From Dictyostelium discoideum (Eukaryota), in contig CM000152.2 in NCBI GenBank assembly GCA_000004695.1, positions 768,001-832,000 on the forward strand: a DNA stretch of 64,000 nucleotides, read 5' to 3'. A program made the position numbers and the translations under genes. Every line of letters begins with the position of its first letter. Within the stretch, counting starts at the first letter, position 1. The notes under the pieces are model-generated. The model had not been told where the DNA came from. It searched no databases and saw only the letters and a program-made list of their open reading frames with translations. This document shows, piece by piece, positions 28,830 to 61,140 of the stretch.

Positions 28830-29167
28830 GTTGTTCATCCATTAACTAGAGAAGAATTATTAAAGATTGCAGGTAAAGAACCAGTACAGGTTGTAGATCC
28901 ACCAACTCATAATCAAGAGGATGAAAGAAATGTAAAGAAACAAAGAAGATTAATAAAGAATCGTGAAAGTGCACAACTCTCAAGAATGAGAAAGAAGATT
29001 TACATTGAAGATCTTGAAAAAACCATTAGTGATTTAACTCAAGATAATAGTTCATTAAAAGAAGAAGTATTATACCTTCAAGGTTTAGTTAAACAATTAG
29101 CAGCACAAAATAGTAATAGTAATAATAATAGTGTTATTGATATCAATAACAATAATGTAAATAATAG

Positions 29168-29205
<38 letters not shown>

Positions 29206-29603
29206 TTAATAATAGTAATAACAATAACAATAACAATAATAATAATAGTACAAATAAACAACAACAAAGTAAAAATGTAAAAGCAGCTGGTGTTTGTCTT
29301 TTACTTATCTTTTTCAGTTTAGGAGTATTCTTCCAACCACCACAATCATCTACTCAACGATTCGGAGCAATTACATCTTTTGATGTTAAACCCACTCATT
29401 CCATCCTTTCAATGTCCGACAGTGAATCATCCCCTCAAAAATCTCTACGTCTATCAAGTAATCATCATTCCCTTCCTGATGGTACTTTTAATACAATCCC
29501 TATTGACCAGCAAACAACAGCAACAACCAATACAAAATCATTACCATCTTATGTTTTAAATAATAATGATGATAGTGATAGCGACTATGAAAATGTAAAC
29601 ATC

Positions 29604-29695
<92 letters not shown>

Positions 29696-30263
29696 TAATA
29701 ACAATAATAATATTAAGAGAAAACAACATCAACAAAATCCTCAATCTGATAGTTTTCAAAATAGGAAAAAAATTAAAATTAATCTTGCAACAGAGAATAC
29801 GGAAGGAGATGGACCATTGGTTTCAAAATCATCAGCCACCACTACCACCACCACCACAACAACCACCACTACATCAACACCAAAGACACCTCAAATTTCA
29901 GAGGATGTTTCTATTGATGAAATAGAGGAACCAATGGTTCATTCATCTCAACAATATATTGTTTGTTCAGATTCTCCTAGAATCGTTTCAAATAATATCA
30001 CTCAAACAACTGAAAGTTTGTTAAATTCAAATTCAACAAATCCAATTACAATTGGCTTATTATTACCAGCTGAAAGTTTAAATTTACACAACATTGTAAA
30101 TAATATTGGTGGTGGTGAAAGATCAATTTTAGAAATTAGTTGTCAAGTTTCAAATATCCGTGTTTGGAATCCTTTATCAATTGACATTGATCATCAATCC
30201 TCAATTGTTCCTGCCTCCTCTTCTTCATCTTCAGCTTCTTCAATATTTACAAATCATTTTTAA
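27514..30263 (+). CDS. Membrane-tethered bZIP transcription factor (ATF6/CREB3/OASIS-like)
   Basis: Three exons: 27514..28277, 28372..28679 and 28831..30263. Intron 1 has a TACTAAC branch site, and intron 2 is largely (TTA)n. The bZIP basic region is KKQRRLIKNRESAQLSRMRKKIYIEDLEKTISDLTQDNSSLKEEVLYLQGLVKQL. A single hydrophobic transmembrane segment (AAGVCLLLIFFSLGVFFQ) lies about 60 aa downstream, as in regulated-intramembrane-proteolysis bZIP factors. PolyQ, polyN and polyT tracts are present. Confidence 0.75.
28758..28826. repeat. (TTA)~23 microsatellite in bZIP gene intron 2
   Basis: Directly visible. Abuts the TAG acceptor at 28830. Confidence 0.95.
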
Positions 30264-30920
30264 AGAAAAAAAAAAAAAAAAAAAAAAAATTACCCCAACA
30301 CTTTTTTTTTTCTTTTTACTTTATTTTATTTTTTTTATATATTTATTTATATCTCTTACAAATACATTTTTTTTACGTCTTTTAATACATACGCATTTTT
30401 TAATATAAAATAAAAATAAAAAATAAAAAAAAAAAAAACATATAAAAAAAAACTTAATTATTTCTTTTTTTCCTTATTTCTTTTTTCTTTTTCCTTTTTT
30501 TTTTTTTTTCCCCCAACTTTCTTTTTAATAAATTATTTAATTAATTTATTAATTAATGTTAATAAAAAAAATATTAATTAATTCTTACTTTTATGGTAAT
30601 ATCGAATCTCTAAAATTAAATAGTGACATTATTAAGTTTTTTTTTTTTTCTATTTAATTATTTTTTATTTTTTTTATTTTTATTTTATTTTTTTTTATTT
30701 TTTTATTATTTTTTTTATTTTTTTTTATTTTTTTTTATTTTTAAAAAGGAAAGAATAAAATGCTGATTGTGGTTTTGATTTAATTTTATTATTTTTTTTT
30801 TTTAAATAACCAAAAAAAATTTGATTTTCAATTTTGGACATTTCTAAAAAAAGTAAAATCTTGTAATAAAACCTTTTAAGGACTAACTAAAAAAATATTT
30901 CCAAAGATGGACGATCTTTA

Positions 30921-30952
<32 letters not shown>

Positions 30953-31298
30953 GTATAAAAAGAAAATTTTTTTATTATCCAAATAGTCATTTTATACAAA
31001 AAATCAGTAAATCAAAGTTTAAAAATAATAATTTTATAAATCAAATAAAAAAAAAAAAAAAACCAATGCCAACTTGTAACAAACTTAAAAATAATAATTT
31101 TTATAAATATTTAAATCAAATAAAAATGTATAAAATAATTTAATAATCATTTTTATTTAAAAAAAAAAAAAAAAAAAAAAAATCAATTTTTTATTATAGT
31201 TATTTGTTGTTTTAATATGACTTGTTCAATAACAGGGTTAAAAGATTTATCTCGGACAAAACCATTTGATTCCATCTTCTAATTGTTTAATAAAAGAA

Positions 31299-31546
<248 letters not shown>

Positions 31547-31905
31547 CTTTAATTAAAGTAGATCTTTTAACTCATGGCTTTTGAACTTGGTAAATATATT
31601 TATAATACATAGAATATAATGTCCTATATTTATAATATTATTTTTTACAATTAAAATAACAATATCAATAATAAAAATAATTTTTTTTTTTTTTAAAAAT
31701 CAATTAAATTTTAATTTATTTGAAAAAAAGTAAAGGTATTTACACTTTATTTATATAATAAAAATATCTAAAAAAATAGATTTGGATAATTTTAATTTTT
31801 TTTTTTTTTTTTTTTTTTTCTATTTCTTTCTTTCTTCTCTTAGATAAACATTAAATTTTTACTTGTTCTTCAAAAACCTGCCAAATATGTTTTTCTAAAT
31901 CTCAC

Positions 31906-32190
31906 TGGCTGTAACTCAGTATTAAAATTCTTTGTGAATACTTTTTCAACTGATCAATTGAATGGCTACCCCCTACTCAAATAATCCACTATTAAAATGC
32001 TTTGTTAATACTTTTCCAACCTATCAATTGAATGGCTACCCCTTACTCAAATAACCCACTATTAAAATGCTTTGAGAATAGTTTTGCAACTGCTCAATTG
32101 AATGGCTACCCCTTACTCAAATAATCCAGTATTTAAATGCTTGTGAATAGTTTTGCAACTGCTCAATTTAATGGCTAGCCATCACTCAAC
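31906..32190. repeat. Tandem array, about 4.5 copies of a 70-bp unit (consensus ~TGGCTACCCCTTACTCAAATAATCCACTATTAAAATGCTTTGWGAATAGTTTTGCAACTGCTCAATTGAA)
   Basis: Unit boundaries are at 31906, 31963, 32033, 32103 and 32172. Copies 2-4 are about 90% identical, while the outer copies are degenerate. Non-coding and intergenic. Confidence 0.9.
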
Positions 32191-32627
32191 AACAGATGGT
32201 TTAATAAATTATTGGAGGTAACAAAGACTTTTCTCAAAAGGAGTTTTTAGTGTCGGTTCCTCAATAATTAAATAATAAAAAAAACAAAACTAAAGAATAA
32301 TATAAAACAATTAAAAAAATAGATTTTTTATCTTTTTTGTTGTCAAAATTATAATATTTCTAATTTAATTTTAAAAACATTTACCAATATTAGTAAATGA
32401 GTTTTAATATTTAACCAGTACTGTCTTGGTCATCTATACCATATACTTGACCCAAATCAGTAACGCCAACCTTGTAAGAGGAGCTCCATGTAATAAACTA
32501 TCATTTATTTTATTTTTTTTTTGAATAAATAATTGACCGTTTTATTTTTTTTTTTTTTTTTTAAAATATATATATTTTTTTTTTTTTTATTTTTTTTTTT
32601 TTCGATAGATATTTTTATTATTATTAT

Positions 32628-32684
<57 letters not shown>

Positions 32685-32737
32685 TATTTATTGTTATTTA
32701 TTTATTATTACAATGATTAAAAAAAAACTATCTTTTT

Positions 32738-33121
32738 TTAACTTAAAACTTCATATGCAACAGATTCTCTTTTGTGGACAGCAACTTTATGAGATAAAAC
32801 ATTATGTAAAAATTGTACACATTTTTGGGAAAGAACTAAACCTTCCATTGGATTTGAACTTGATACGTCGTATAAATTTGGAGCAACAACGATTGCTAAA
32901 TTTTGAGCTGTCATTTTATTGACATCAGAGAAACTTGAAACCATTAATAATAAATGCATTAACCAATCTAATAAACTTTTTTGTGGTTCTGGTAAATTCT
33001 TTGCTGATTGAACGCATTCATCAATATCTGTACTATAGAAAATCTTTTCTGTTGGAATTGAATTTAAAATTGGTGTTGGTAATTCTCTATACCAAATCTA
33101 ATAAAAAAAATAAAAAAATAA

Positions 33122-58911: not shown

Positions 58912-59062
58912 CATTTTACAGACAATGAGTAATGTCTTTAAAATATTAAACAGGTAAAAATTTAAATAGTAAAAAATAAAATTTAATTAAAAAAAAAAAA
59001 AAAAAATAAAACTATTAATGTAAAGTTTCATTTTTTCATTTTATTTAATAAAATTTTTTTTG

Positions 59063-61140
<2,078 letters not shown>

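Follow-up and report, generated by a model that had tools for sequence, protein, structure and literature searches.

A 70-bp tandem array beside gacA in Dictyostelium discoideum: very probably a copy-number-variable minisatellite and not a class I RNA locus

The intergenic interval beside gacA

The window analysed here is a stretch of 64,000 nucleotides (64 kb) of Dictyostelium discoideum DNA with an overall G+C content of 20%. It contains two convergent genes whose facing ends are separated by 2,474 bp, from the plus-strand stop at 30263 to the minus-strand stop of gacA at 32738. Within this interval lie a long poly(dA) tract and a short array of 70-bp repeats embedded in an island of raised G+C. 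The principal features are listed below.

28986–30263, plus strand: last exon of the convergent gene, whose products in related assemblies measure 782–834 aa
31302–31544, plus strand: poly(dA) tract of 243 nt, separated from the array by 362 nt and preceded at about 12 nt by AATAAA (TRF and sequence)
31800–32299, no strand assigned: island of raised G+C around the array, 0.26–0.355 against 0.08–0.175 in the surrounding intergenic DNA (composition profile)
31906–32190, no strand assigned: 70-bp tandem array, the probable minisatellite (TRF, repeat family D7, unit alignment A3)
32738–33109, minus strand: last exon of gacA (RhoGAP), 99% identical to the gacA cluster

The initial annotation had described a gene-free interval of 2.4 kb next to a poly(dA) tract of 240 nt. 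Both descriptions hold at the lengths given above: the near-identical assembly L002 carries no gene call in the interval, and TRF delimits the tract to 243 nt. Interval alignment indicates that about 200 nt of the tract is kept in a further D. discoideum assembly, L004. The tract may have begun as a retroposed poly(A) tail that later expanded, or it could simply be a homopolymer enlarged by slippage.

At the gacA end, a spliced transcript contig (L009) maps to the last exon and continues to window position 32661. Because the contig ends there in an (ATT)n run, it does not locate the end of the gacA 3' UTR. At the opposite end, the last exon of the convergent gene begins with a stretch that by eye resembles leucine-zipper heptads, IEDLEKTISDLTQDNSSLKEEVLYLQGLVKQL. 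Pfam returned no bZIP domain for three ORF pieces of this gene, only weak hits below threshold.

Structure and composition of the array

TRF detects a head-to-tail tandem array at 31920–32189 with a period of 70, 3.9 copies, 88% matches, and a score of 400. A direct-repeat search recovers the same units at spacings of 70, 70, and 69 (family D7). The unit alignment A3 resolves the following layout.

31906–31919: partial unit of 14 nt
31920–31989, 31990–32059, and 32060–32129: full units
32130–32189: degenerate last unit with a 1-nt deletion

This tandem organization is far beyond chance, and the 70-bp array first described from the letters alone is real, its paralogous units differing by about 10%. 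Both ends of the array grade into unique sequence that is still unit-like. Searches for further copies were negative at every scale covered: BLAST of the consensus found no second array in the 64-kb window, no second copy of a unit occurs in the 13-kb orthologous loci, an exact scan of JGI metagenome contigs gave no match to a 24-mer core of the unit, and 15–16-mers of the unit had no match in a full-text literature search.

The G+C content of the units ranges from 31 to 36%. When seven units from two strains are compared, ACTCAA is the part that never varies, and the columns of CCTTAC rank among the most variable.

Distribution among strains and species

Orthologous loci (L001–L008) were fetched by way of gacA, and D. 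discoideum is represented in the comparison by four assemblies. The stretch between the stops of gacA and the convergent gene differs widely in length among the fetched loci.

L005, D. citrinum: 344 bp
L007, D. cf. discoideum: 400 bp
L001, D. firmibasis: 405 bp
L006, D. dimigraforme: 443 bp
L008, D. cf. discoideum: 600 bp
L003, D. discoideum (GCA_054859355.1): 868 bp
L004, D. discoideum (GCA_054859385.1): 2,294 bp
L002, D. discoideum (GCA_054883475.1): 2,328 bp

Among these very close relatives, the intergenic length between the convergent genes therefore spans 344 bp to 2.5 kb when the window is included. The window and L002 share 99.5% identity over the 9 kb compared and are identical over 31841–32520. 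Within L001–L008, the array occurs in L002 and L004 only, and no array-like sequence was found in L001, L005, L006, L007, or L008. Copy number amounts to 3.9 in the window and L002, 2.9 in L004, and zero in L003. Three nested segments account for these differences.

30511–32512, no strand assigned, ends approximate and in A-runs: non-coding block of about 2.0 kb, lacking in D. firmibasis, D. citrinum, D. dimigraforme, and the two D. cf. discoideum assemblies
30773–32324, no strand assigned: segment of 1,552 bp that spans both the poly(dA) tract and the array; the window, L002, and L004 carry it, and L003 lacks it (junction 7698/7699)
31975–32044, no strand assigned: 70-bp segment in unit register, missing from L004 (three-way interval alignment, L004 units V1–V3)

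The smallest of these segments is one unit gained or lost since the strains split. The L004 array matches that of the window at 93.5% identity, and neighbouring non-coding segments range from 84 to 97% in this one strain pair. Paralogous units differ by about 10%, compared with 6.5% for orthologous units, so the units were duplicated before these strains separated.

Since the window and L004 both carry the 1,552-bp segment, its absence from L003 is most simply explained as a recent deletion. L003 and L004 differ by 0.3% in the flanking coding segments, and the deletion junctions in L003 lie in short A/T runs. The loss looks like a recent deletion of the microhomology type.

The history of the larger block is less straightforward. 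The AX4-type window carries it, as does L002, and L003 and L004 carry part of it. At this locus, the D. cf. discoideum assemblies are no farther from L003 and L004 than AX4 is (1.3–2.5% differences). Because they are no more distant, the presence or absence of the block does not track species labels cleanly. With differences of 1.3–2.5% among AX4, L003/L004, and D. cf. discoideum, the block may have been gained once or lost repeatedly.

The presence or absence of this DNA as one block between close relatives raises the question of a mobile origin, in which the lineage-specific segment of 1.5–2 kb would be an uncharacterised element, mobile or retroposed, and the array one of its internal or subterminal repeats. 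The 243-nt poly(dA) tract, with its AATAAA shortly upstream, likewise recalls a retroposed 3' end. However, terminal inverted repeats and long terminal repeats are absent, the only matches being low-complexity A/T sequence, and no clear target-site duplication can be made out, the junctions being located in A/T runs. The segment contains no ORF and no Pfam relic. ARAGORN found no tRNA gene in the window, and hence none of the type that attracts TRE elements. The segment is also single-copy in the 64-kb window and the 13-kb loci, and the comparison of L003 with L004 favours deletion over insertion. An origin as part of such an element is accordingly very unlikely.

Comparison with class I RNAs

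The class I RNAs of Dictyostelium, or DdR-21 family, are reported in Aspegren 2004 and Avesson 2011. According to Kjellin et al. 2021 (PMC7919456), these RNAs are 42–65 nt long, their ends are joined by a 6-bp stem, and the 5' G is invariant. The 11-nt motif CCTTACAGCAA directly follows the 5' half of the stem and is nearly invariant within Group 4, CTGT is conserved at the 3' end, and G+C content is 32–41% (PMC7919456). A DUSE is located about 60 nt upstream of the class I start or of a TGTG box (AAATGTG), and the lowest score admitted for the class I covariance model is 15 bits (PMC7919456).

The initial annotation had offered three readings of the array: a class I locus in decay, a satellite that arose from such a locus, or a minisatellite with no such connection. 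The last of these is upheld, and the first two are not. A decaying, tandemly duplicated class I locus, or a satellite that started from a class I gene and its DUSE promoter, would account for several likenesses. The array is intergenic, as class I genes can be, for intergenic clusters of them do exist. The unit G+C of 31–36% is close to the published range, and CCTTAC followed by CAA occurs in two units as the class-I-like CCTTACTCAA. Finally, one unit carries the DUSE-like octamer ACCCACTA about 50 nt upstream of GGCTACC in the next unit. The positions of these two elements are as follows.

32041–32050, plus strand: class-I-like CCTTACTCAA, inside the exact copy of TGGCTACCCCTTACTCAAATAA at 32033–32054
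32054–32061, plus strand: ACCCACTA, the sole octamer in the array within one mismatch of the DUSE

Closer inspection weakens the motif resemblance. Only two units contain an exact copy of the 22-mer TGGCTACCCCTTACTCAAATAA (32033–32054 and 32103–32124, plus strand). It had been placed in each of copies 2–4, which is correct for these two, but another unit (31963–31984) reads CCCCCTAC, with one mismatch. The remaining unit reads TGGCTAGCCATCACTCAA, also given as GCCATCAC. CCTTACTCAA is thus carried by two of four units, and its likeness to the 11-nt motif needs a gap: the reported identity at 9 of 11 positions of CCTTACAGCAA is obtained only when 1 nt is skipped, and without gaps the array does not come within two mismatches. 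Chance alone would yield 0.46 occurrences of the gapped pattern CCTTAC N1-2 CAA per window, and the two hits in the array are copies of a single ancestral occurrence. The CCTTAC part of the motif also falls among the columns that vary most across units and strains, which further speaks against a class I origin.

The DUSE resemblance fares no better. No exact DUSE ([AT]CCCA[CT]AA) is present in the array, and the DUSE-like element ascribed to each unit reduces to the single one-mismatch site at 32054. Sites of this kind are rarer in the window than expected (153 observed, 183 expected), and the DUSE-likeness of ACCCACTA is put down to chance. In this genome, a near-DUSE together with a short gapped match to the motif lies within chance expectation, and the class I and DUSE resemblance of the array is a chance partial match. 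Overall, the initial description stands for the array, the gene-free interval, and the poly(dA) tract, but not for the 22-mer in each unit or the details of motif and DUSE.

Profile searches point in the same direction. Curated D. discoideum class I sequences were taken from the supplement of PMC7919456, and 30 canonical DdR members were aligned. From these 30 sequences a covariance model with terminal stem (R1) was built, which is distinct from the published multi-species model. In a search of the whole window with filters off, R1 gave no hit in 31800–32300 on either strand at E<=10. It returned 33 weak hits across the window at this threshold, the weakest listed at 7.5 bits. The array accordingly scores below 7.5 bits, against the published minimum of 15 bits. 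The best R1 hits in the window are at 59654–59697 (plus strand, 15.6 bits) and 60902–60958 (minus strand, 14.9 bits). The former is a partial match, TTACAGCAAAT, without stem, within a long asparagine-rich ORF (59060–60664). The two hits appear to be coincidental matches within coding DNA. An nhmmer sequence profile of DdR genes scored the control DdR-21 at 41.8 bits and listed 223 window hits at E<=1000, none of them in the array. This profile tests canonical class I RNAs only because it is narrow, the held-out atypical DdR-64, -65, and -67 being barely detected.

The structural features are missing as well. The terminal 5'/3' stem, which the initial annotation had suggested looking for, is absent from every unit, whereas the controls DdR-21 and DdR-47 both pair at 6/6 positions. 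Stems were sought beside the CTTAC core in four registers (−2 to +1) and at lengths of 36–99 nt; no unit reached 6/6 in any register, and the best reached 4–5 of 6 pairs at lengths outside the class I range. A conserved 5' G/stem register is missing too. CTGT occurs nowhere within the units and follows none of the candidate 3' stems, and the array contains no TGTG box (AAATGTG). Single units fold no better than shuffled sequences (z = +0.4 to +1.6). Folding of the whole array gives z = −0.03 on the plus strand and z = −1.91 on the minus strand, the latter a mild effect of pairing between units. RNAalifold predicts 0 pairs for the seven units from two strains. Rfam found nothing over the whole window at gathering thresholds, nor in 30200–32800 at E<=10.

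The arrangement of the units differs too. Real class I clusters consist of distinct genes 0.5–1.4 kb apart, whereas the array units follow one another head to tail every 70 bp. The array has none of the defining features of class I RNAs that were tested, and descent from a class I gene is extremely improbable. The analysis disposes of a mistaken lead towards a tandem class I RNA locus and matters little beyond that.

Coding capacity and transcription

Six-frame translation places stops in all frames of every unit. Pfam has no match in the array, and the concatenated array peptides have no homologue at E<=10 in a collection of 5.8 billion protein sequences. A coding array was rejected on these grounds and because the 30-aa ORFs described below are not preserved.

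Transcription of the array deserves separate consideration. The G+C of the island (0.26–0.355) is more typical of transcribed than of intergenic D. discoideum DNA, which counts against a silent repeat. The array could in principle lie within a transcript of about 0.45 kb made by RNA polymerase II, young and specific to D. discoideum, which would be either an lncRNA or the carrier of short ORFs such as MATPYSNNPLLKCF... (30 aa). Upstream of the array on the plus strand are a T24 run (31796–31819) and a TATA-like TATATAAT (31753), and AATAAA (32274–32279) lies downstream. Two overlapping 30-aa ORFs start from the ATGs of successive units. Yet A/T motifs of this kind are commonplace in DNA of 20% G+C, and the third ORF is truncated by the 1-nt deletion. 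In L004, one unit lacks the ATG and another has a different ORF end. The 30-aa products were never called as a gene in the assembly collection and have no homologue, the element is deleted in a natural strain, and its divergence equals that of the flanks. A transcript of this type is consequently unlikely.

A more specific version confines the transcription unit to about 31820–32280 and makes it very young, specific to D. discoideum, and situated in newly acquired DNA, its product being an lncRNA or repeat-encoded micropeptides. Such a unit is distinctly improbable; if it existed, repeat copy number would vary its product between strains. The supplements of a D. discoideum lncRNA paper (PMC5295588) mention neither gacA nor the chromosome 3 identifier and are uninformative on expression here.

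A minisatellite in dispensable intergenic DNA

The array is very probably a neutral, lineage-specific minisatellite of variable copy number, situated in dispensable intergenic DNA, and not an RNA gene. Its tandem structure, restricted distribution, one-unit difference between strains, flank-like divergence, and removal by the 1,552-bp deletion are directly observed. Features of coding sequence, of RNA structure, and of class I RNAs are plainly absent. As to transposon hallmarks, no terminal repeats, ORFs, domains, or second copy were found in the window and the compared loci, and the junctions fall in A/T runs.

Under this minisatellite interpretation, a unique segment of about 70 bp would have been duplicated in place, head to tail, within some 2 kb of lineage-restricted non-coding DNA. 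The array would later have drifted at the rate of its flanks. Replication slippage or unequal exchange may change the copy number by whole units, and the entire array could vanish without disturbing the two convergent flanking genes. Both the mechanism of slippage or unequal exchange and the neutrality of the array are what we infer from these patterns.

The comparison with eukaryotic minisatellites (VNTRs with units of 10–100 bp) is favourable in most respects. The array is non-coding and intergenic, is built of 70-bp head-to-tail units that diverge by about 10%, varies in copy number by one whole unit, and can be lost. It diverges as its flanks do, with no constraint beyond theirs (93.5% against 84–97%, in one strain pair). 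Unlike typical minisatellites, it is very short, at about four units, and its G+C exceeds that of the surrounding D. discoideum intergenic DNA. The polymorphism between gacA and its neighbour, comprising the 70-bp copy-number variation, the 1.55-kb deletion, and the block of about 2 kb, is a possible strain marker for the D. discoideum complex.

Other features of the interval

Two further parts of the interval stand out in the strain comparison. The patch at 32399–32502 (104 bp) has an unusually high G+C and reads TAGTTTATTACATGGAGCTCCTCTTACAAGGTTGGCG... on the minus strand; in its place, L003 and L004 have a non-homologous AT-rich segment of 119 bp. The open-frame peptides of this patch have no homologue in the protein collection and no Pfam match.

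The blocks on either side of the poly(dA) tract, 31545–31690 and 31193–31290, are the best conserved non-coding DNA between the window and L004. They contain two mismatches in about 150 nt and two in about 100 nt, respectively, compared with about three per 50 nt elsewhere. The block at 31545–31690 carries two TATAAATA motifs upstream of a T-run on the minus strand. These conserved blocks may represent a promoter-like element or just local variation in rate.
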